Part shown: positions 3,658-59,309 of the stretch, piece by piece
Numbering within the stretch: the stretch's first letter is position 1
Layout: each line of letters begins with the position of its first letter
Source: Spirochaetia bacterium
GTDB taxonomy: Bacteria; Spirochaetota; Spirochaetia; WTKD01
Direction of reading: 5' to 3'
NCBI GenBank assembly: GCA_965243525.1
Contig: OZ251568.1
Coordinates: 466,119-530,118 of the forward strand
DNA: 64,000 bases
Program-made: the position numbers and the translations under genes
Notes under the pieces: model-generated
What the model saw: only the letters and a program-made list of their open reading frames with translations
What the model was told of the DNA's origin: nothing
Databases searched by the model: none

Positions 3658-5179
3658 TAATACGCGTTTCTCGAATCAACGTAATGCGAATTCTTCCTGA
3701 ATAGCTCAGCTCTTTTTCAATCCTCTTAGTGATATCGCGCGCTATCGTTCTCGTATCAACATCAGAAAGTGCCTCATGGTCAATGATCACCCGAAGTTCT
3801 CTTCCTGCTTGTATCGCATAGGCTTGTTTCACCCCTTCAAATTCCAAAGCAATTGATTCAAGTGCACGTAGTCGTTTGATGTATGCTTCCAGCGATTCTT
3901 TGCGAGCACCCGGGCGAGAAGCAGACAGCGTGTCTGCGATTTGTACAATGGCCGCTTCAATACAGATATATGGTACATCTCCATGGTGTGCCGCGATACA
4001 ATTCACCACCTTTTCAGATTCTTTCATCCGCTTTGCTAGTTCCACACCCAGTTCGACATGGCTTGCATCTGCATCTGAAAACAATGCTTTTCCAACATCG
4101 TGCAGCAGTCCACCGCGTTTTGCAATCACTACATCAGCGTGGAGTTCTGCAGCAAGCATTCCTGCGATATGCGCAACTTCAAGCGAATGGGTGAGCATGT
4201 TCTGCCCATAGCTCGTTCTAAAATGAAGCCTTCCAATTCCAGAAATACCTTCTTTGTTCATATTTTGAATTGAAAGGTCAAAGAGTGCTTTTTCTCCGAG
4301 TTCAAAAATATAATTTTGAATATCGACTTTTTGCTTTTCTACAATCTCTTCAATGCGCGTAGGATGAATTCTCCCGTCATTGATGAGGTATTCTAATGAT
4401 CGTCGTGCAACTTCACGTCGCACTGGATCGAAACAAGAAAGCGAAACAAATTCTGATCCGGCATCATCGATTATGATATCCACCCCAGTGAGGGTTTCAA
4501 GAGCACGAATATTTCGCCCCTCACGCCCGATGATCCGTCCCTTCATCTCTTGGTTCGGCAATTGCACCGAAACAGTCGTGTTTTCAACACTTACTTCAGA
4601 AGCAATTCGCTGCATCGATCCGACCAGCAACCGTTGTGCCAAACGCTGTGCATCCTGTGCTGCATCCTGCTCAACCTTGTTGATCAGCGATTGCGCATCT
4701 CGTTGTGCCTCTGTTTCAAGCGATTGAATAAGCATTGATTTTGCTTCTTCACTCGTGAGATCAGCAAGTTTTTCAACTTTCTTCCTCCACGATTCAATAT
4801 CCTGCTCTAGTTTTTTAGCGCCTTGATGTATTTTCCTCTCGCGAGAATCAAGTGCTGATTGTCTTCGTTGAAGTGACTGCGTTTGTGCCTCGCAAGAATC
4901 CTCACGATTTGAAAGACGTTTTTCTTGCCTTTTTAAATCGGAACGCATCTCACGAAATTCTTTTTCCTGCTCTAGACGCTCTTTTTGAAGAGCCTCTCGC
5001 GTCTTAAGAATTATTTCTTTTTTTTGTGCCTCAACTTCTTTAATTGCATCAAGCTTTAACCGTTCAGCTTTTTGTTCTTCAGATGTCAATTGAAATTTCG
5101 CATATAATAAGCGAAACAACCATCCAGCTACAATTCCCAAGAGAGGAAGTGCAATATAGACAATAACAATTATGTCCAT
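3641..5179 (-). CDS. rny: Ribonuclease Y.
   Basis: N-terminal TM helix, a long coiled coil (KAERLKLDAIKEVEAQKKEI...), KH domain (GREGRNIRALETLTGVDIIIDD) and HD domain (HSLEVAHIAGMLAAEL...LLHDVGKA). 512 aa. Confidence 0.9.
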   Translation of the reverse strand: MDIIVIVYIALPLLGIVAGWLFRLLYAKFQLTSEEQKAERLKLDAIKEVEAQKKEIILKTREALQKERLEQEKEFREMRSDLKRQEKRLSNREDSCEAQTQSLQRRQSALDSRERKIHQGAKKLEQDIESWRKKVEKLADLTSEEAKSMLIQSLETEAQRDAQSLINKVEQDAAQDAQRLAQRLLVGSMQRIASEVSVENTTVSVQLPNQEMKGRIIGREGRNIRALETLTGVDIIIDDAGSEFVSLSCFDPVRREVARRSLEYLINDGRIHPTRIEEIVEKQKVDIQNYIFELGEKALFDLSIQNMNKEGISGIGRLHFRTSYGQNMLTHSLEVAHIAGMLAAELHADVVIAKRGGLLHDVGKALFSDADASHVELGVELAKRMKESEKVVNCIAAHHGDVPYICIEAAIVQIADTLSASRPGARKESLEAYIKRLRALESIALEFEGVKQAYAIQAGRELRVIIDHEALSDVDTRTIARDITKRIEKELSYSGRIRITLIRETRIIEYAR

Positions 5180-5299: not shown

Positions 5300-6580
5300 A
5301 TGGCAGCGTATAGTGTCAAGAATATCGCTACGGGGAGAATTTTTGAGGATCGGTTCACCGACAAGGGATTTCTGCTGAGTGATCCAAAGTCTGCAGATGA
5401 TAGCCTGCTCCAAACGGTATATCCAAAGGATGCACGGATTGACACTTCAAAAAATACGTTTGAACGCTATGCAGGATTTATTCCCACCAATCGCCCCATT
5501 CCCCCCGGATCGCGATCAATTACCTACCATGCAACAACATTGGGTGAACATCTTGGATTAGAACAATTATACATCACCGTCAGTGGCTATGTGCCTCGAT
5601 TGGGGACTACCTACATGTCAGGAAGTTTTAAAGAATGTGAGGCCCTATCCGTCTTTGCACGCATGCCTCAGAATGCTCATGGGAAGACCCTTGTGATTGC
5701 TTCTGCTGGAAATACTGCACGCGCCTTCGCTCATATCGCTGAACTATGCGAACAACCAGTGCTTCTTGTTGTTGCAGAACAAAATGCATCAGCACTCTGG
5801 TGTCGCCATCCCGATCCTCGGTTTGTTCGAGTCTTGCATGTTGCTCATGGAGATTATTACGATGCGATTCACGCGGCAAATATCGTATGCAGCTTTGACG
5901 GTTTTATCCCAGAAGGTGGGGCAAAAAACATCGCACGGCGCGATGGCATGGGGACGACCATGCATGAGGCCATCTCCGTGATGGAAGCAATCCCCCAACA
6001 TTATTTTCAGGCAGTTGGAAGTGGTACCGGCGCAATAGCTGCCTGTGAGGCCGTGGAACGGAGAATTGAACGAGAATATCCGAATGCTCCGCTGTGCACC
6101 CTACACCTTTCACAAAATGCTCCCTTCACGTTGCTGGTTGACTCGTGGAACACCCGGACAAGATCCTTGGCAGAACTTTCTGACGATGATGGAAGAGCCC
6201 AAAGTGCAGTGATCCACGCGCCAGTCCTTGCAAATCGCAACCCAGTCTATGGCATTTCCGGTGGCGTTTTCGACGTTTTGCATAAGACAAATGGACATAT
6301 GTATGCGGTGACAAATGAGGAAACGAAACAGTCGCAGGCCGAATTCACCCATTGTGAAGGCTATGATATCGATCCTGCCGCCGCAGTAGCCTATGCAAGT
6401 CTTAAACAGGCAATTGCATTGGGGCGCATCCCCACTACCGATCTGTGCATGCTGAACATCACCGGGGCAGGATATGCAGGAATTTTTCAATCCTTCAACC
6501 CTCAACCACTTTCACCCAACTGGACAATCGATGTAGGACAGATGACTCATGACACCCTTGCATCCTTACTGCTAGAATAA
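5300..6580 (+). CDS. PLP-dependent threonine-synthase-fold enzyme, cysteate-synthase-like.
   Basis: A candidate PLP-lysine motif (MSGSFKECEA) is followed by TLVIASAGNTARAFA, the fold-type II PLP signature of the threonine synthase/cysteate synthase family. 426 aa. Confidence 0.55.
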   Translation: MAAYSVKNIATGRIFEDRFTDKGFLLSDPKSADDSLLQTVYPKDARIDTSKNTFERYAGFIPTNRPIPPGSRSITYHATTLGEHLGLEQLYITVSGYVPRLGTTYMSGSFKECEALSVFARMPQNAHGKTLVIASAGNTARAFAHIAELCEQPVLLVVAEQNASALWCRHPDPRFVRVLHVAHGDYYDAIHAANIVCSFDGFIPEGGAKNIARRDGMGTTMHEAISVMEAIPQHYFQAVGSGTGAIAACEAVERRIEREYPNAPLCTLHLSQNAPFTLLVDSWNTRTRSLAELSDDDGRAQSAVIHAPVLANRNPVYGISGGVFDVLHKTNGHMYAVTNEETKQSQAEFTHCEGYDIDPAAAVAYASLKQAIALGRIPTTDLCMLNITGAGYAGIFQSFNPQPLSPNWTIDVGQMTHDTLASLLLE

Positions 6581-15928: not shown

Positions 15929-16834
15929 ATGGATGTACAAAAACTAACTATATTAAATAAAAAAATTATTGAGGCGATTGATTGTATTTCTCGACTACGA
16001 AGAGAAAATGATCAATTGCACAAGGAAAATCGACAGCTCACCGAACAGAACGATCTAAAAAGTGCAACGATTGAAGAATTACACGGGGAACTCGATTCAT
16101 ATGGCGAAAACTTCGGTGAGATTGAGCAGACGCTCAATCAATCACTTGAGGCTCTTGTCAAATTGGAAAATGCATTGGAACCAACTAATTCTGAAAATGC
16201 TAACTCTGATGTGGAACCAGAACTTGAAAATTCAGCTAGCGAAGCTTTGGAGAGTACAGAATTCTCCACCGAAAACGAAGATTCTGCTCAAAGCGACCAC
16301 ACACAGAAAACAGATCAAGAAAATTCCGATGTGAAAGACAATGACCTGGCAGCAGCTGTCATCGATGCTGCACCAGCGCATGATGAACCAAATACGATTG
16401 TTAATGGTTCGTTTCATACTGAAACTGAAGAGGCTCCGAAGCAGGTGGATACATCAACCGATGATTTTCTTGATGCGTATACTCCTTCGTCCAATGCAGC
16501 AAACAGCTCTGATCAAACTGATGTTGCTACTCCTGTTGCAATGGCAGCACCTAGCGGTGTGCAGAACAACAACGAATTCATCGATATGATTAATAACAAA
16601 TCAAACGCTACGAAAGAGGAATCACTTTCTCCTGAAAAAATCGCACAAGCAAAAGAATTCCCTTCTGAATCCCACCTTCCACTTCAAGAACAAGAGATAA
16701 AGCCACAAACGACTTCATTGTGGGATGTCACATTTAACAATGCTGCCCCTGTGAACAGTGAGTCTAGTGCAAAAAGAGAAACAGATAGACAGGATTCTTT
16801 TTCACTGTTTGATTTTCCGAGTTCGTCTCAGTAA
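15929..16834 (+). CDS. ZapB-like coiled-coil cell-division protein with a long acidic low-complexity C-terminal extension.
   Basis: N-terminal MDVQKLTILNKKIIEAIDCISRLRRENDQLHKENRQLTEQ resembles the ZapB coiled coil. About 230 aa of D/E/S/N-rich disordered tail follow. The gene sits directly upstream of zapA. Confidence 0.45.
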   Translation: MDVQKLTILNKKIIEAIDCISRLRRENDQLHKENRQLTEQNDLKSATIEELHGELDSYGENFGEIEQTLNQSLEALVKLENALEPTNSENANSDVEPELENSASEALESTEFSTENEDSAQSDHTQKTDQENSDVKDNDLAAAVIDAAPAHDEPNTIVNGSFHTETEEAPKQVDTSTDDFLDAYTPSSNAANSSDQTDVATPVAMAAPSGVQNNNEFIDMINNKSNATKEESLSPEKIAQAKEFPSESHLPLQEQEIKPQTTSLWDVTFNNAAPVNSESSAKRETDRQDSFSLFDFPSSSQ

Positions 16835-47587: not shown

Positions 47588-48496
47588 TTGGCTGTTGTTT
47601 CAATGCAAAGCTTATTAGAAGCCGGTGCACATTTTGGCCATCAAGCAAAGCGATGGCACCCCGCTATGAAACCATACATCTTCACTGAAAGAAATGGTAT
47701 TCATATTATCAATTTACAGAAGACCATACCGCTCATTCGTGATGCGTTTTCTGCGGTACGATCTGTCGTACTTGAACGTAAACAGGTTCTGTTTGTAGGA
47801 ACAAAAAAGCAAGCACAGACCGCCATGGAGCGAGAGGCTACAAAATGTAGTATGCTCTACGTCAACCACCGCTGGCTCGGTGGTATGCTTACCAATTTTT
47901 CTACAATAAAACAATCAATCCATAGACTAAAAAAATATGAAAAACTTGAGGTCGATGGAACGCTTGAGTCATTAAGCAGCAAGGAATTATCGCGTATTTC
48001 AAAAAAGCGACAGATTCTTGAACGAAACCTTGGCGGCATCAAGGAAATGCGCGAATTACCCGGGATTGTCTATATCGTTGATCCTGATCGTGAATCAATA
48101 GCCGTGTCAGAAGCACGAAAATTGAAAATTCCTATTGTTGCGATTACCGATACCAACTGTGATCCGCGACTCATTGATTATCCTTTGCCAGGAAACGATG
48201 ATGCTATTCGCTCGATTTCTTTGTTCACGCAAATTATTTCGCAGGCAGTCATCGATGCAGACAATGAAATGGGTCTTGAGGTCATCGAAACATTGCAAGA
48301 TGAAAACGTAGACTACGATACTATTCAAGACAAAGATAGCGAACGCTATATCGATGAATACTACGAAGAAGAAGCCTTGTTCGATAAGGATACATCTGGC
48401 ACCGAATCCGGTGAAACACCAAACGATTCGAAAGAGCCAGAAATTGGATCAGAGGAACGACAGTATATAGATGAAACAGGAGATGAAAACCAATAA
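47588..48496 (+). CDS. rpsB: 30S ribosomal protein S2 with an acidic C-terminal extension of about 50 aa.
   Basis: VSMQSLLEAGAHFGHQAKRWHPAMKPYIF..RNGIHIINLQKT...LFVGTKKQAQ... Tail DENVDYDTIQDKDSERYIDEYYEEEALFDKD... Confidence 0.9.
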   Translation: MAVVSMQSLLEAGAHFGHQAKRWHPAMKPYIFTERNGIHIINLQKTIPLIRDAFSAVRSVVLERKQVLFVGTKKQAQTAMEREATKCSMLYVNHRWLGGMLTNFSTIKQSIHRLKKYEKLEVDGTLESLSSKELSRISKKRQILERNLGGIKEMRELPGIVYIVDPDRESIAVSEARKLKIPIVAITDTNCDPRLIDYPLPGNDDAIRSISLFTQIISQAVIDADNEMGLEVIETLQDENVDYDTIQDKDSERYIDEYYEEEALFDKDTSGTESGETPNDSKEPEIGSEERQYIDETGDENQ

Positions 48497-52766: not shown

Positions 52767-54674
52767 ATGTGTATGCGAATACTTTGGTATGCAGCGATCA
52801 TCACATCATGTTGCGCCTTGTTTGCACAGTTTACCACGGCGCATAGTGGAAAAATAAAGACAATCATCTCAAATGACACCATCACTGTAACAACCGGCGT
52901 CGATGGCATCGTAAAGATAACCGATGACAAGTTTCGCTCAGCTCGCGAATTATACGTTTCTGCAAATGCACTCGGAGATGTCGCCTTCCACCCCACTGAT
53001 CCCCTCATCGCGATAGAAACCCTAGGAACATCACAACAGCAAGTGATTGTCGTGTATAACACACAATCAAACACAAAACTCTATGAATTCAAAGCGCAAG
53101 ATGCTGAAACAATCAGCTATTTTTCGTTTTCACCTCAGGGACGATACCTTGTCATCGCGGGAAATGTCGGCGGAATACAGAGACTCCAAGCACGTTCCGG
53201 CATACCGATAAAGGAATACAAATCACCCTTATTCGCAGACTATTTTTTCATTGGGAAGAGCACAAAAAACATCCTCACCTATACCGCCGATACGGGAATA
53301 CTTGCCTATTATAATTTTCGTAATGGTTCCCAGGTGCAGACTTTTCAATCACAAAAGGGATTGCAATCTCTCACTGCTCTATCAACACGCTATCTATTGG
53401 GTATTCGTGAAGACAGAACCCTCCACCTGCTTGATTTATCAAATGGGATAAGCACCGAGCTTTATCGCTCTTCACAGAAGATACAAGCTTTTAGCATTGA
53501 TCTTCAAAACAACACCGTGTATATGATCGAACAACGAAACAATGCTCCCATGCTCACCGTATTATCTCTATCAAATACCCGGCAACCTCGCAGTTCCGTT
53601 ATTCCCTTTGATCCAACGGCAATCCACATCGACGCTAAACAGATCATCTATATCGCTGAATCAACAGGAAAAATCCATCAAGTTGACCCTGTTTCGCACC
53701 GTTTTTCTCTTCTCCTTGATCATCATCATATTCCCATTGAACGCTTTTCGTTTTCACAAAACAATGAACTTACGGCCCTCTGCAAGAACAACCTCATTTC
53801 AGTGCGATTTCGTTTAGAGGACAACACCATACGCCCGATGCAACTACGCTACACCACCGCTTCTCCAAACGACATCTATTTTTCACCAGATACTGCGTAT
53901 TCCTCCGCACTTAGTTCATATCCAGATTTCTTTACCCTCCCTTCCCTACCTATTGATGCGGCTGTACAAACGATTGAACAACTTGCGGTCTATTCTGATT
54001 TTTTCTTGTACCGGACGCAATCCGACGATATAATTCTTCAAGATCGTCAAAAGAACGAAGCAAGAGTGCAACTTTCCGTTCCTGGTGTAAATGATGTCAC
54101 GTATATTCCTGATAAAACATTGATTATCATTGCACAACCTGCAATCGGGATGTTTAACACTTCCTTGCTTGCCATTCACAGTGTCACGCAAGAAACGATC
54201 CCACTTAAGAGTAACCAATTCCTGACCTTTGATGTGCATTACAGCGAAAAAAACAACTTGCTTTACAGCCTTGGACTAGAACGTTCAGAAGACAACACAA
54301 TCCACACTTCTGTTGAAATACACGATGGAAATGCACTCCAATTTTACTGGAAGGGTGTAGAAGTCGATGAAGAGCATCTGGGAGCTTTTCTGGTCGAGAT
54401 CGACGATGTGGTAACAGTGGCTGGAATAGAAAATGCCAAAACGACCTGGTTTGACGAAACGACAATTTCACCCGAACTTTCAACAAAACTACGATATTAC
54501 AGCTCTGCCCGGGCCTCACAAGATTTAATCAGTGTATTACGAAAAGATGGAAGCATCACCGTTATGGACAAGGGTCATTCTGAACAGCTCATCACACTCT
54601 ATTGTAACAGCAAGGCATCCCGATGGGAGTTATGGTCCCAGCAAACGCGTTGGCATTATCCTTTTGGGCGATGA
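52767..54674 (+). CDS. Secreted beta-propeller-like protein of unknown function.
   Basis: Signal peptide AAIITSCCALFAQ. 635 aa with repeated beta-strand-rich segments of about 40-50 aa. It occupies the slot after rseP that holds bamA in many diderms. Confidence 0.4.
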   Translation: MCMRILWYAAIITSCCALFAQFTTAHSGKIKTIISNDTITVTTGVDGIVKITDDKFRSARELYVSANALGDVAFHPTDPLIAIETLGTSQQQVIVVYNTQSNTKLYEFKAQDAETISYFSFSPQGRYLVIAGNVGGIQRLQARSGIPIKEYKSPLFADYFFIGKSTKNILTYTADTGILAYYNFRNGSQVQTFQSQKGLQSLTALSTRYLLGIREDRTLHLLDLSNGISTELYRSSQKIQAFSIDLQNNTVYMIEQRNNAPMLTVLSLSNTRQPRSSVIPFDPTAIHIDAKQIIYIAESTGKIHQVDPVSHRFSLLLDHHHIPIERFSFSQNNELTALCKNNLISVRFRLEDNTIRPMQLRYTTASPNDIYFSPDTAYSSALSSYPDFFTLPSLPIDAAVQTIEQLAVYSDFFLYRTQSDDIILQDRQKNEARVQLSVPGVNDVTYIPDKTLIIIAQPAIGMFNTSLLAIHSVTQETIPLKSNQFLTFDVHYSEKNNLLYSLGLERSEDNTIHTSVEIHDGNALQFYWKGVEVDEEHLGAFLVEIDDVVTVAGIENAKTTWFDETTISPELSTKLRYYSSARASQDLISVLRKDGSITVMDKGHSEQLITLYCNSKASRWELWSQQTRWHYPFGR

Positions 54675-54710: not shown

Positions 54711-56063
54711 TTATACTGGAGAACTTGCCGTATGTGAAAACTCCGGCATATAGGATTCAAATGCTGTATACTGTGGGATAAACACAACTTGCAAGGAACC
54801 AACCGGACCGTTTCGCTGTTTTGCAACGATTAATTCGGTTTTAATTGCTTGAATCTGCGCTTCTGAATTCGTCGCTTCGCGTTCACGATGTAAGAAAATC
54901 ACTACATCAGCATCCTGTTCAATCGATCCTGATTCACGAATATTTGCCAAGACAGGCCGCTTTCCTTCGCTATCACGGGTCAGCTGTGATAATGCAATAA
55001 TAGGGATGTCAATCTCACGCGCTAATGCCTTCAAAGATCTAGACAGCTCAGCAATCTGTTCATATCGCGGAAGATCAATCTGCTCAGTGCCAATCAGCGA
55101 GATATAGTCGATGATTGCCATTTCTATACCGTGTTTACGTTTCATACGGCGTACTTGTGCACGAATATCAAGGAGTTTCATCCCTGGTTCATCAGCAATC
55201 CAGAGCGGTGCAGGATAAATTGTCTGTGCTGCGGTCTGTATCTGCTGCAATTCACGAAGGCTTAATCGGCCAGATCGAATCTTTTGTCCACTGACCCGAG
55301 ATTCCATCGACAATAGTCGTTGAATCAATGCATCACCTGACATCTCTAAGGAAAAAAATCCTATTGGGTGTTGATTTCGCACCGCCGTATGCATCGTAAT
55401 CGAAAGTGCCAAGGCGGTTTTTCCAACCGATGGCCTTGCTCCTATAACGATAAACTCAGCGTTCTGAAAGCCTCCCAACATGGTATCCATATCCTCAAAT
55501 CCAGAGGGAATTCCGGTAATGTTGGACTCTCCCCCCTCGTTCCGTCGCCCTTCGATTCTATTGTAGATATTGAAAACATCGTTTTGGATGCTCCGATAGC
55601 TCACTGCATATTTTCGTTCAGCAATATCAAAGACTTTTCGTTCTGCTTCTTCAAGAATACCGCTAGTCTCGTTGTGCTCGACATAGGATTCTTCAATTAT
55701 TTCTGTAGATATTTTTATCAAACGCCTACGCAAACTATGTTCACGAACAATTTCTGCATATTCCACAACATTAGCGCTCGATGGAACCGCTTCAGATAAA
55801 GAAAACAGGAAGGGCATCCCTCCAATTGCCTCTAGTTGATCAAGCTGTTTTAAGCGCTCGGCAAGGGTTACATAATCAATATTTGTTCGAGTTTTATCAA
55901 GATGGCATATTGCATCGTAGATATAGGCATGTTTTTTGCGATAGAAATCTTCGACCTGAAGCAGGGTAACAACTTCATCAATGGATTCTGGGTCGATGAG
56001 AATCGCTCCCAAGGTGGCAATTTCAGCTTCGTCATTATGTGGCTGTACACGAGACTGACTCAT
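54711..56063 (-). CDS. dnaB: Replicative DNA helicase DnaB.
   Basis: PHNDEAEIATLGAILIDPE..., Walker A GARPSVGKTALAL, and RecA-fold motifs IIALSQLTRDSE. Confidence 0.9.
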   Translation of the reverse strand: MSQSRVQPHNDEAEIATLGAILIDPESIDEVVTLLQVEDFYRKKHAYIYDAICHLDKTRTNIDYVTLAERLKQLDQLEAIGGMPFLFSLSEAVPSSANVVEYAEIVREHSLRRRLIKISTEIIEESYVEHNETSGILEEAERKVFDIAERKYAVSYRSIQNDVFNIYNRIEGRRNEGGESNITGIPSGFEDMDTMLGGFQNAEFIVIGARPSVGKTALALSITMHTAVRNQHPIGFFSLEMSGDALIQRLLSMESRVSGQKIRSGRLSLRELQQIQTAAQTIYPAPLWIADEPGMKLLDIRAQVRRMKRKHGIEMAIIDYISLIGTEQIDLPRYEQIAELSRSLKALAREIDIPIIALSQLTRDSEGKRPVLANIRESGSIEQDADVVIFLHREREATNSEAQIQAIKTELIVAKQRNGPVGSLQVVFIPQYTAFESYMPEFSHTASSPV

Positions 56064-56078
56064 CTAAAAAATAAATAC

Positions 56079-57104
56079 TTAGGCTGAGGGATCATTCTCA
56101 GGAGTTTCTGCATCCCTTGATTCCTCTGTCTGTGCTGTCGTCTCTTGCTCAGCAGCGGCGTTCTCCACTTCTGAAACCTGCTCAGAAATCACAGCTACCT
56201 CTTCTTCCGCAGTTGCCGTTTCTTGCTCAGCGGCGGTGTTCTCCACTTCTGAAACCTGCTCAGAAATCTCAGCTGTCTCTTCTTCCACAGTTGCCGTTTC
56301 TTGCTCAGCGACGGTGTTCTCTACCTCTGAAACCGGTTCAGAAATCTCAGCTGCCTCTTCTTCCACAGTTGCCGTTTCTTGCTCAGCGGCGGCGCTTTCT
56401 ACTTCTGCAGTCTGTTCAGAAATCTCAGCTGCCTCTTCTTCCACAGTTGCCGTTTCTTGCTCAGCGGCGGCGCTTTCTACTTCTGCAGTCTGTTCAGAAA
56501 TCTCAGCTGCCTCTTCTTCCGCAGTTGCCGTTTCTTGCTCAGCGGCGGTGTTCTCCACTTCTGTGGTCTGTTCAGAAATCTCAGCTGCTGCTGCTTCCGC
56601 AGCTACTGTCTCTGCATCCAATAATTCAACTGTTTCACGAGCATGTTCATCAGAGACAGGAAGAACTTCTACTGGGATAGTAACCGAAATATCTGCATAA
56701 AGATTGATTTTTGCTGAATACGTTCCCACTTGTCGAATGGAATACTGCTCAAGGTGAATGTTTTTTCTATCAACTTGAATATTTTCAGCTTCCAATGCTT
56801 GGAGAACATTGGCACTGGTTATTGAACCAAACAATTTTCCTGTCTCAGCAGCGCGCACATAAGCCCGAAACAAGGTGCCATTCAATCGCTCTTGAATCGA
56901 CTGCATCGCAACTACTTTTTCTTTTTTACGTTGCTCAATGGCGGAAGTGCGGCTAGCCATCATAGAACGAGTAGTGTTGTTATACGGCAAAGCAAACCGC
57001 TGTGGGAGAAGATAATTACGAGCATATCCGCTTTTAACGGTATGCACATCGCCTTCCTCGCCAAGATTTGGTACGTCCTGTATCAGGATAATTTTTACAC
57101 TCAT
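56079..57104 (-). CDS. rplI: 50S ribosomal protein L9 with an acidic tandem-repeat C-terminal extension of about 190 aa.
   Basis: MSVKIILIQDVPNLGEEGDVHTVKSGYARNYLLP...LGSITSANVLQALEAENIQVDRKNI is the L9 core (about 150 aa). It is followed by 26-aa repeats (EISEQTAEVESAAAEQETATVEEEAA) x about 6. Confidence 0.8.
   Translation of the reverse strand: MSVKIILIQDVPNLGEEGDVHTVKSGYARNYLLPQRFALPYNNTTRSMMASRTSAIEQRKKEKVVAMQSIQERLNGTLFRAYVRAAETGKLFGSITSANVLQALEAENIQVDRKNIHLEQYSIRQVGTYSAKINLYADISVTIPVEVLPVSDEHARETVELLDAETVAAEAAAAEISEQTTEVENTAAEQETATAEEEAAEISEQTAEVESAAAEQETATVEEEAAEISEQTAEVESAAAEQETATVEEEAAEISEPVSEVENTVAEQETATVEEETAEISEQVSEVENTAAEQETATAEEEVAVISEQVSEVENAAAEQETTAQTEESRDAETPENDPSA
56140..56615. 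repeat. Tandem 78-bp repeat, about 6 copies, two of which are identical. It is the coding part of the rplI tail.
   Basis: The motif cttgctcag recurs at 56145, 56223, 56301, 56379, 56457 and 56535. Units 56379-56456 and 56457-56534 appear identical. Confidence 0.85.
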
Positions 57105-57997
57105 CGGTCTTCTCCTCGTTCCGGTATTCTAATCCAAAGTTTTGCAATCCCTAACACACACATTCCAACAATAACCACCATCCCTATATAGGGAAAAATG
57201 GAAGCAATCACTATAGCAGTCATAATAGCATTAATTCGTCGTTCTGACAATCTTCGATACATCAAATAAGAAACTCCCAATCCCATTCCCTGCAAAAAAT
57301 AAAGGATAAACAATATCCCTACTATATTTGCAGCAACGACAAAGAGCGTCGTTTGTTCAATGACCATCAACCCATCAAGTACTAGTATGAGAAAGGCTCC
57401 AATCCCAAGCCAAATACATTGTGGTGGAAGTGATATAACCTCTAGCCTTCTCAACAAAACATGACGTTTTCCCTGTCGTTTGTTATATGAACCGTGGGCT
57501 ACAGCAATACCAAGCCAATTAATCAAAAAAATAGTGCTTCCAAACAGCGATGCAAGCGAAAGAATATAGGTTTGAATAACATCATTCGATACACTAAGTC
57601 GCATGAAATCTTCAAACATAGTTCTGATAAAATCTGCAAAGACTTGACTTTGTGTGCTCAAGACTCCTACAAAAATACCTGCAACAAGCGAAGCCAGTCC
57701 GGTGTATAACAATTTTTGAGTGAGTGTGGCCTGCATAGTATTGTGGATATAGATCACACTCGAGCCAACAACAAGAATCGCAGAGCTAAAAATAGCGTTG
57801 AACAGTATTATCTGCATATCCAAGGATTGGTTAAACACATTCTGAAAAATCAAGTATTGGCCAATGGTCACCACGAAAAGGGCTAAAAAACCCCATTGCA
57901 ATTGGAGACTAAACTGTCTTTTGTTCTTTGACTCGTAGAGCAATAGCTGCAAGGGAAATAGATAGAGAAAAACAGCTATCCGTGAATAAAACAGCAA
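57101..57997 (-). CDS. Polytopic membrane protein, DUF2232/YybS-like.
   Basis: 298 aa with about 8 TM helices. It sits between rpsR and rplI, as yybS does in Firmicutes. Confidence 0.4.
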   Translation of the reverse strand: MLFYSRIAVFLYLFPLQLLLYESKNKRQFSLQLQWGFLALFVVTIGQYLIFQNVFNQSLDMQIILFNAIFSSAILVVGSSVIYIHNTMQATLTQKLLYTGLASLVAGIFVGVLSTQSQVFADFIRTMFEDFMRLSVSNDVIQTYILSLASLFGSTIFLINWLGIAVAHGSYNKRQGKRHVLLRRLEVISLPPQCIWLGIGAFLILVLDGLMVIEQTTLFVVAANIVGILFILYFLQGMGLGVSYLMYRRLSERRINAIMTAIVIASIFPYIGMVVIVGMCVLGIAKLWIRIPERGEDR

Positions 57998-58056
57998 TAT
58001 GCTTGCAAGAATAAGCAGCGGGGTTCTGTACTTGTGTATGAATTCCCGAACAATAA

Positions 58057-58572
58057 CTATTTATCCTTAAACGGAAGCAGCGCAAGCACCCGAGCTCGTT
58101 TTATCTCTCGTACGACTTTTCTTTGCATTTTTGCAGGAATGCCAGTTATACGTCGCGGCAATATCTTTCCTTGCTCGGTAGTAAAGTTCTTCAAGATATC
58201 TGGTTTTTTATAATCGATTTTTAAAGATCGAAAATCAATCCGGTCACGGTATCGAGAGCCATAGCGCCCATGCCCACGATAGTCTGATCGTCGAGATCCT
58301 TGCGCATTGCGTGGTCGTGAATCTCGTGATTCAGATCGCGGTTCTCGCGGCCCTCGTGATTCAGTCCTCTGTTCTCGCGATTCGGGTCGTGATTCAGATC
58401 GTGGTTCTCGTGATTCAGGACGTGACTCAGTCCTCTGTTCTCGTGACTCAGGTCGTGACTCTCGTGACTCGGGACGTGATTCAGTCCTCTGTCCTCGCGA
58501 TTCAGGTCGTGCCACATCTTTCTTTTCTTCTGTTGTAGGTGTAGTTATATCTTTTTGATTTTCTTCTGCCAT
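58057..58572 (-). CDS. rpsR: 30S ribosomal protein S18 with an Arg/Glu/Ser-rich repeat N-terminal extension of about 100 aa.
   Basis: C-terminal core [50 protein letters not shown]-terminal [10 protein letters not shown](S/P)R(P/S)ESREQ repeats. Confidence 0.75.
58300..58500. repeat. Tandem repeat with a period of about 54 bp (about 3 copies) encoding the ESRPESRE repeats of the rpsR N-terminal extension.
   Basis: The units gattcag[at]cctctgt[tc]ctcg[ct]ga[ct]tc[ag]ggtcgtga... recur. Confidence 0.55.
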
Positions 58573-58587
58573 ACTGTATCCTATATT

Positions 58588-59016
58588 TTAAAATGGAATA
58601 TCATCGTTAAACGATGCATCGGTTTCCGTTGTTGCATTGGAAGAAGCAGAGGTGTATTCAGGAGCAGAATCAAAATCTGCATCCCCTCCACGATTGCCGC
58701 CCAATAATTGCACTTGGTCAGCAACAACGTGCACCTTGCTTCGCGTTTCACCTTCTCGTTCCCAACGATCCTGTCGTAGAGTTCCTTGAAGTGTAACCGT
58801 TTTTCCCTTCAACAAGCTTTTCTGCAATACTTCCCCATATCGACCAAACATTGTTACGTCAAAAAAGCTCACCTCATCTGTCCACTCATCTCCGCTTTTT
58901 TTACGTCTATTAACCGCAATTGAAAACGTACATATCGCCAAGCCGCTGCCGGTATATCGTATTTCAGCGTTTCTTACGAGGCGACCTCCTAAAACAACTG
59001 TGTTTATGTCAGCCAT
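58588..59016 (-). CDS. ssb: Single-stranded DNA-binding protein.
   Basis: OB-fold N-terminus MADINTVVLGGRLVRNAEIRYTGSGLAICTFSIAVNRR, a Gly-rich linker, and the acidic tip DDIPF. Confidence 0.85.
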   Translation of the reverse strand: MADINTVVLGGRLVRNAEIRYTGSGLAICTFSIAVNRRKKSGDEWTDEVSFFDVTMFGRYGEVLQKSLLKGKTVTLQGTLRQDRWEREGETRSKVHVVADQVQLLGGNRGGDADFDSAPEYTSASSNATTETDASFNDDIPF

Positions 59017-59309
59017 GGTTCTTCATTTTTTATTACCATCATGCGGAGCAATTTCGTATAATGTTTCAATTTACTACGAACTTTATGTGCATTCTCTGCT
59101 GCAGCAACGCTTCGATAGAGAAAGTAATTCCCTTGTTTTTCTTTGTTGATAGGATACGCAAGACTACGTAGTCCCATATGTTCTTCGCCAATAATCTTTA
59201 TATCCAACTCTTTTAGGGTATCACGTACCTCATCACGTCCTGTTTGAAATTTGTTCGAGTCGGCATAAAACAAACAGATTATTTCATATTGTGCATCTTT
59301 TCCATTCAT
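59004..59309 (-). CDS. rpsF: 30S ribosomal protein S6.
   Basis: YEIICLFYADSN...LKELDIKIIGEEHMGLRSLAYPINKEKQGNYFLYRS. 101 aa, upstream of ssb-rpsR. Confidence 0.75.
   Translation of the reverse strand: MNGKDAQYEIICLFYADSNKFQTGRDEVRDTLKELDIKIIGEEHMGLRSLAYPINKEKQGNYFLYRSVAAAENAHKVRSKLKHYTKLLRMMVIKNEEPWLT

Follow-up and report, generated by a model that had tools for sequence, protein, structure and literature searches.

The window considered here is a stretch of 64,000 nucleotides from the genome of a Spirochaetia bacterium (contig OZ251568.1, positions 466,119 to 530,118; the coordinates below are those within the stretch). It encodes the ribosomal proteins bL9 (rplI) and bS18 (rpsR) in one operon, and both proteins carry long, charged, low-complexity extensions. 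These extensions very probably originated by tandem duplication and belong to a tendency found throughout a group of related spirochaetes. Judged from sequence comparison, long tails on these two proteins characterise the group as a whole and are not peculiar to this genome, which is an extreme example of the lineage-specific low-complexity extensions on solvent-exposed ribosomal protein termini and of a kind of growth that is to be expected there. For the explanation as a whole, in which real, translated extensions were recently duplicated at a repeat hot spot, are held to their composition by selection and in L9 serve as a spacer, the chances appear about even.

The rplI gene (56079 to 57104, minus strand) encodes a protein of 341 amino acids (aa), with an expected mass of about 36 kDa, recognised by its open reading frame (ORF) and by Pfam and NCBIfam matches. 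It is preceded by the ribosome-binding site GAGGAGA, and its start codon overlaps the stop codon of the upstream gene, which occupies the position of a DUF2232 membrane protein gene, in the sequence ATGA. Residues 1-148 (56661 to 57104) form a bL9 core of N domain, connecting helix and C domain that scores above the curated cut-offs with PF01281 (aa 3-45, 65.7 bits), PF03948 (aa 67-148, 73.9 bits) and TIGR00158 (aa 3-148, 114.5 bits against a cut-off of 58.6); matches to bL9 chains in the PDB have E-values down to about 2e-22. In an AlphaFold2 model the core contains a helix at residues 43-75, and the predicted local distance difference test score (pLDDT) is about 83-92 for aa 51-150 and about 49-57 for aa 1-40. 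The core is followed by a tail of 193 aa, in agreement with an earlier note on this DNA, written by a model from the sequence alone, which had described a normal L9 core with about 190 additional residues. The core has a net charge of +4 compared with -61 for the tail.

The tail begins with a non-repeat linker (aa 149-174, VSDEHARETVELLDAETVAAEAAAA; 56583 to 56660, minus strand) that is homologous to the first residues of the tail in P0171, the L9 of the related locus L081, and shares 29-39 of 78 bases with the repeat units. Five full units of 78 bp, or 26 aa, follow (aa 175-304; 56193 to 56582), as delimited by Tandem Repeats Finder (TRF) and by their in-register layout. A decayed sixth unit (VISEQVSEVENAAAEQETTAQTEESR; 56115 to 56192) has 55-60 of 78 bases in common with the other units and is recognisable over about 54 nt, or about 18 codons, before it diverges. 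The layout ends with a unique C-terminal stretch of 11 aa (DAETPENDPSA) and the stop codon (56079 to 56114); the peptide EISEQTAEVESAAAEQETATVEEEAA also lies within the tail. TRF reports 5.9 copies of a 78-bp period at 56139-56602, free of indels and with 91% matches (score 676), and the reading frame is unbroken over the 464 bp of the array. About 148 of the 193 residues fall within the repeats, so that the earlier description of the tail as 26-aa repeats holds for that part and not for the linker (aa 149-174) or the last 19 or so residues, which are unique. Its count of about six 78-bp repeats with two identical copies is borne out: five units are complete and one is partial, and units 2 and 3 are 100% identical at the DNA level. 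The remaining units agree pairwise at 68-72 of 78 bases (87-92%) and each has private substitutions; all six units, counting the decayed one, include five distinct sequence variants, and the longest exact self-match in the array is 107 bp. A 22-mer taken from the unit is present five times in the window, spaced at exactly 78 bp, the expected number being zero. No copy of the unit was found elsewhere in the 64-kb window, which rules out that it is a module common to other genes there.

The residues of the L9 tail include 59 Glu, 42 Ala, 24 Thr, 4 Asp, 2 Arg and no Lys. Among the five full units the variable Glu codons (4, 8 and 10) differ only by exchanges between GAA and GAG, and amino acid changes are confined to T/A/V/S/N/Q/P positions. 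AlphaFold2 is inclined to build helices from Ala/Glu-rich low-complexity sequence, and its model of the tail has two isolated long helices (aa 152-216 and 265-330) with a gap of very low confidence between them, no tertiary contacts and a predicted template modelling score of 0.39. On this model the tail is non-globular, either disordered or partly helical.

The bS18 protein is 171 aa long, has an expected mass of about 20 kDa and is encoded by rpsR (58057 to 58572, minus strand; ORF, Pfam and NCBIfam matches), which has an AGGA ribosome-binding site 8 nt upstream of its ATG. Its N-terminus, MAEE, is similar to the MAEE or MSDE starts of its relatives. The extension amounts to about 98 aa, as the motif IDYK stands at residue 119, compared with about residue 21 in E. 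coli S18. It includes 25 Arg, 19 Glu, 17 Ser and 10 Pro and has a net charge of +5. Within it lies a degenerate xESR region (aa 21-86; 58315 to 58512) with 11 ESR triplets and a higher-order unit of 54 bp in about 2.3 copies, where TRF finds arrays at 58323-58511 with periods from 12 to 66 bp and 72-90% matches; by these measures the rpsR array looks more decayed than that of rplI. An R/G/Y/S-rich segment (aa 87-108; 58249 to 58314) adjoins the core and aligns with an R/G-rich segment in L081 and other relatives. AlphaFold2 models aa 1-110 as coil with a pLDDT below 50, and the extension has the marks of a disordered terminal extension, being of low complexity, outside the core and devoid of a predicted fold.

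The S18 core (aa 109-171; 58057 to 58248) is matched by PF01084 (aa 117-166, 77.9 bits) and TIGR00165 (aa 115-170, 78.3 bits against a cut-off of 38.75). It carries RIDFRSLK and TGIPAKMQR where most relatives have KVCxFC and TGTCAKHQR, and the entire protein contains no Cys, so that it has neither the CxxC before the core nor the Cys in TGTCAKHQR that characterise the Cys-containing (C+) form; S18 has at least three Cys in 67 of 74 relatives. The earlier picture of a repeat extension of about 100 aa on a canonical S18 is therefore accurate in length, while the repeats are restricted to about aa 21-86 and the core is Cys-less. No second, Cys-containing copy of rpsR was seen within the window.

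Translation of both extensions is supported by uninterrupted ORFs on well-scoring cores, and the ribosome-binding sites and translational coupling fit a tight operon. Several ORFs run through the arrays on the reverse strand (56117-56680, 56236-56700, 58221-58517 and others). They were set aside as by-products of stop-free repeats because the rplI and rpsR frames run on from conserved cores and fit the tail composition of relatives; no homologue search was made of them.

The wider context comes from 80 related loci, each from a different species, that were fetched with an alignment of the L9 core and in which L9 tails could be measured in 77 species. Tails similar to those of the window are present across these 77 spirochaetes, a comparison that the earlier note had recommended. 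The L9 tails have a median length of 66 aa (range 10-114) and reach at least 29 aa in 75 of the 77 species. They are net negative in 73 of 76 relatives (median charge -10, minimum -32), and are rich in A, E and K with a far half that is more acidic than the near half. For S18, relatives have a median of 35 aa (range 11-167) in front of the reference point, and the window protein has 108 aa. Of the best 150 matches in a HMMER search of 1.84 billion representative proteins with the full-length query, none is longer than the window L9, and the next in length has 298 aa. The exact L9 and S18 sequences occur once each in 5.8 billion protein clusters, both on a single contig, and the next-best L9 matches, about 54% identical, belong to Sphaerochaeta and its relatives among the spirochaetes, measure 190-260 aa and are all tailed; in cultivable Sphaerochaeta the tails have 60-70 aa.

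Cys-less S18 proteins recur within this group. In the loci L041, L055, L062, L066, L072 and L076 they bear R/D/G/S-rich N-terminal extensions of 63-133 aa, as against a median of 34 aa for the Cys-containing forms, a comparison uncorrected for phylogeny. These are exactly the six loci, all from metagenome-assembled genomes (MAGs) of uncultured Spirochaetaceae or Spirochaetales, whose DnaB proteins are nearest to that of the window after L081, with identities of 50-53% compared with 58% for L081.

L081, a Joint Genome Institute (JGI) metagenome contig recovered through P0171 in the HMMER search of representative proteins, is the closest relative found. It shares synteny with the window across more than ten genes, and its housekeeping proteins are 58-63% identical to those of the window. 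Its L9 is 228 aa long and has an acidic, repeat-free tail of 80 aa whose first 25 or so residues align with the window linker; its S18, encoded at 4718-5035, has 105 aa, is likewise Cys-less and has an R/G-rich N-terminal region of about 42 aa with no ESR motif. As the repeats are absent from both L081 proteins, both expansions in the window postdate that split. Since then the L9 tail has grown from about 80 to 193 aa by amplification of the 78-bp unit, and the N-terminus of S18 from about 42 to about 108 aa by way of xESR motifs. The identical unit pair together with the repeat-free closest relative shows a recent in-frame tandem duplication, where the earlier note had seen ongoing slippage or recombination, and with one identical pair and units 87-92% alike the rplI array is, from its sequence, young. 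Two further searches were made: the 22-mer of the unit had no match in metagenome contigs, and a scan for closer relatives with a clade-specific L9 alignment returned only proteins of at most 45% identity; none of the relatives exceeds about 60% identity.

Arrays of this kind are concentrated at the same termini in other species. TRF was run over 718 kb of related loci and arrays with a score of at least 50 were merged, which placed 47 arrays in L9 tails, although these make up only 2.4% of the bases, 11 in S18 extensions and 29 in the other 685 kb. The corresponding densities per kb are 2.68, 0.75 and 0.042, an excess of about 64-fold for L9 tails and about 18-fold for S18 extensions over the rest of the loci. 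An array is present in the L9 tail of 41 of 77 species, and independent examples include 18 bp x 16 (L001), 24 bp x 5.6 (L032) and 15 bp x 4.8 (L054) in L9 and 24 bp x 5.5 (L080) and 18 bp x 3.9 (L026) in S18. The 78-bp array of the window has the longest unit and the top score among the arrays compared. The L001 array (5533-5824, from a Sphaerochaeta MAG) encodes AKVAEE repeats in the rplI tail and contains 1-nt indels that shift the frame and truncate the ORF. These are probably assembly or sequencing errors within the repeat, the true tail then being about 100 aa longer than called.

The termini of L9 and S18 are hot spots of low-complexity growth throughout Sphaerochaeta-like spirochaetes, and in the lineage of the window the extensions were lengthened recently by in-frame tandem duplication, through either replication slippage or unequal recombination; this origin and the group-wide context are close to certain. 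Less securely, it is proposed that selection keeps the composition of the tails and not their sequence. A role in contacts between neighbouring ribosomes of a polysome, and an effect on frame maintenance, have been ascribed to bL9 (PMC9534751, PMC10931766). According to in-cell work its C domain lies flat on the ribosome surface or, in polysomes, reaches from the leading ribosome into the elongation factor site of the following one (PMC9534751). A polyanion on this domain could therefore serve as a flexible electrostatic or entropic spacer that weakens or tunes the contacts of the C domain with rRNA and with neighbouring ribosomes, a role that we infer tentatively and that remains on the doubtful side. 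bS18 lines the mRNA exit site (PMC6133939), and its extension may form a disordered, charge-balanced and Arg-rich arm that leaves the 30S platform at this site and makes weak contacts with mRNA leaders or rRNA. Length as such is probably under weak constraint, hence drift in copy number is expected. It is a long shot that the acidic L9 tail is a group-conserved module that sets the distance or contact between ribosomes in polysomes, by repelling, or competing with, binding of the L9 C domain at the factor site of the next ribosome. Its length would then be tuned per lineage, and possibly per strain, by gain and loss of repeats, with the tail of charge -61 as an extreme setting and the S18 arm as a parallel adaptation at the mRNA exit.

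Several observations weigh against the proposal that selection maintains these tails as functional spacers. There are only 15 variable sites in the rplI array, and the conservation of Glu codons in so young an array may just reflect too little divergence time. Disorder is not established for the L9 tail, as the modelled helix at aa 265-330 has a fairly high pLDDT of 76-92. Moreover, L034 and L064 are almost tail-less on L9, and the length and sequence of the tail turn over fast within the range of 10-114 aa, so a long tail is dispensable in the group.

A serious alternative for the length of the tails, and in part for their composition, is neutral runaway slippage, in which functionless, solvent-facing termini tolerate any low-complexity sequence that is hydrophilic, and their growth is permitted by the small effective population size of an organism with a 1.79-Mb genome. 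It shares its origin with the proposal of selected composition and differs from it only on whether that composition is selected. The tails share no sequence between species and in L9 their length varies between 10 and 114 aa, independent origins of arrays are frequent, L081 does well with much shorter versions of both extensions, the lengths of L9 tails and S18 extensions are uncorrelated (rho 0.06), and the contig that carries the exact proteins is only 1,792,209 bp long, all of which a neutral process would accommodate. Slippage alone would hardly produce the negative charge of 73 of 76 L9 tails or their layout, basic near the core and acidic further out, nor does it account for the fact that 75 of 77 species retain an L9 tail of 29 aa or more, or for the purely synonymous changes at the Glu codons of the unit. 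As a complete account, neutral slippage is possible and stays below an even chance. The rival idea of a tunable, contingency-type locus adds that populations are polymorphic for copy number, which adjusts how ribosomes behave, and that selection acts on length variation itself. The identical adjacent pair would be a substrate for frequent gain and loss, a unit of 78 bp is a multiple of three and lets copies change without loss of frame, and arrays are dense at the hot spot across species. Set against this, the units are 87-92% identical and not near-perfect, which implies lower slippage rates; no phenotype is known to be tied to the length of a ribosomal protein tail; and the exact proteins are confined to one contig, no second genome of the species having been found. 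Such tuning therefore seems improbable.

An assembly or sequencing artefact, with the array expanded or collapsed or the ORF mis-joined, has in its favour that MAGs of relatives show repeat-linked errors such as the 1-nt indels in the 18-bp x 16 array of L001, and that the copy number of the identical unit could be off. An assembler cannot, however, invent the units of rplI, because the distinct variants carry private substitutions, and the longest self-match of 107 bp is within ordinary paired-read reach. The frame is also intact over 464 bp, mis-assembly is not to be expected of S18 repeats as degenerate as these, and tails are present across the whole group, so that an artefact is very improbable. 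Equally remote is electrostatic pairing, in which the L9 polyanion and the Arg-rich S18 arm would have co-expanded to bridge the 50S and 30S subunits near the platform. Both are expanded in this one genome, and in the M. smegmatis ribosome bL9 has been described as lying close to bS6, uS11 and the site of mRNA exit (PMC6133939). Over 72 species, however, one length does not correlate with the other (Spearman rho 0.06, p 0.64), for which reason co-expansion was rejected; L9 negative charge and the number of Lys and Arg in S18 are related with a rho of only 0.19 (p 0.11), and the S18 extension is nearly neutral overall at +5.

rplI and rpsR are part of an operon on the minus strand (54711 to 59309) that consists of rpsF (59004-59309), ssb (58588-59016), rpsR, a membrane protein gene (57101-57997), rplI and dnaB (54711-56063). 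The rpsF-ssb-rpsR-rplI cluster upstream of dnaB has the same order in L081 and in 76 related loci. The gene between rpsR and rplI encodes a multi-pass membrane protein of 298 aa and appears to be a divergent positional orthologue of DUF2232 (YybS-like) proteins. The window protein has no match in Pfam even at E-values up to 10, PF09991 included, but it matches 20 positional orthologues in tblastn searches (E-values from 6e-4 down to 2.5e-7), and seven of eight orthologues tested reach the gathering score of PF09991 (29.6-44.8 bits against a cut-off of 27.8). The orthologue in L081 is a weak PF09991 match, and 74 of 76 related loci have an ORF of about 300-365 aa at this position. Bacillus has the rpsR-yybS...rplI arrangement as well.

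The S6 (101 aa) and SSB (142 aa) proteins of the window operon have no unusual tails. Repeat-built, A/E/P-rich C-terminal tails do occur on S6 in some relatives, namely L074 (2461-3132), L066 (2596-3180), L072 and L055. In L074, where S6 measures 223 aa, the tail includes a 45-bp unit in 4.7 copies with 98% identity, and that of L066 contains EEPAA about seven times. In L070 the S6 frame continues into SSB sequence to give an apparent tail of 154 aa; S6 and SSB may be truly fused there, or the MAG may have lost a stop codon or contain a frameshift. Adjoining dnaB is a gene for a protein of 620-635 aa (window 52767-54674, plus strand; L081 8166-10034, minus strand) with faint beta-propeller/WD40 matches in Pfam and an N-terminus resembling a signal peptide.

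Elsewhere in the window, S2 has an acidic C-terminal tail (aa 224-302, 79 aa; 48257 to 48496, plus strand) beyond its Pfam core (aa 9-223). An acidic tail had been noted there before with a length of about 50 aa; it is present, though longer, and it is free of repeats. The S2 ORF (47588-48496, plus strand) is listed with a TTG start, and its true start is uncertain. The ORF at 15929-16834 (plus strand, 301 aa) had been described as a ZapB-like protein with a D/E/S-rich tail. Its match to ZapB is below threshold (aa 1-54, 23.8 bits against a cut-off of 31.5) and its identity is uncertain; it has an N-terminal coiled coil followed by about 215 aa rich in D, E, S, N and T, so that the biased stretch is real, while it contains no repeats and is not a tail added to a conserved core. 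All TRF rows with a score above 52 in the 64-kb window fall within rplI or rpsR, and an entropy scan of 63 ORFs flagged only rplI (aa 163-329) and rpsR (aa 21-89) as low-complexity. No rRNA gene was found in the window. The suggestion of a consistent pattern of appendages on core proteins of the window was thus overstated, as S6 and SSB are ordinary, the S2 tail is repeat-free and the ZapB-like ORF is a coiled coil with a disordered region. The earlier note had also overlooked the group-wide tails, the Cys-less S18 and the putative DUF2232 membrane protein gene between rpsR and rplI.

A polyanion on the C domain of L9 across a bacterial group amounts to a natural experiment on the inter-ribosome role of this protein, and with a charge of -61 the present genome is its most extreme case. 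As repeat hot spots in spirochaete genomes, the 3' end of rplI and the 5' end of rpsR are also candidate strain markers and places where MAG assemblies break frames, as in L001. In the literature searched on acidic L9 tails in spirochaetes, low-complexity extensions of S18 and spirochaete ribosome structures no direct precedent was found, and the group-wide acidic L9 tail and the repeat hot spot appear new to it.

Extensions of more than 20 aa are common on bacterial ribosomal proteins and are mostly predicted to be disordered, 11 proteins being extended in Mycoplasma pneumoniae (Xue et al. 2022, PMC9534751). Those of the window resemble them as terminal, solvent-exposed additions relative to E. 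coli, mostly of predicted disorder, that are scattered across bacteria (PMC9534751), but at 193 aa in L9 and about 98 aa in S18 they are much longer than extensions of the M. pneumoniae type and are visibly built of tandem repeats. The longest bacterial chains in the PDB have 192 aa for bL9 and 98 aa for bS18, and the only solved S18 proteins of comparable length are organellar (bS18c, 137 aa; bS18m, 237-261 aa). These also have large N-terminal additions on a bS18 core, which are however partly structured and fit remodelled ribosomes, and no sequence similarity to the window S18 was detected. In chloroplast bL9c the extra length is N-terminal, unlike the C-terminal acidic tail described here. 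The zinc-independent S18 paralogue of mycobacteria (PDB 9e16, 'S18 C-') has, like the window protein, lost Cys upstream of and inside a core that keeps ...IKRAR, whereas the Cys-less gene of the window sits in the main rpsF-ssb-rpsR operon. With its 14 SR dipeptides, its alternation of Arg with Ser or Glu and its predicted disorder, the S18 extension recalls the RS domains of eukaryotic SR proteins. The earlier term 'RS-like' is apt in this compositional sense and not as a statement of homology, since the protein is a bacterial ribosomal one with PF01084 as its only domain and no RRM, has Glu in place of phospho-Ser and falls outside the definition of an SR/RS-domain protein. Close counterparts are bL9 proteins of the Sphaerochaeta type (190-260 aa), which have the same core (42-54% identity), an A/E-rich and net-negative C-terminal tail and the same operon with DUF2232. 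Compared with these relatives the window tail measures 193 aa against a maximum of 114 and has a charge of -61 against a minimum of -32; it also lacks both the A/E/K-rich near segment and any Lys, and it is built of the longest repeat unit seen.

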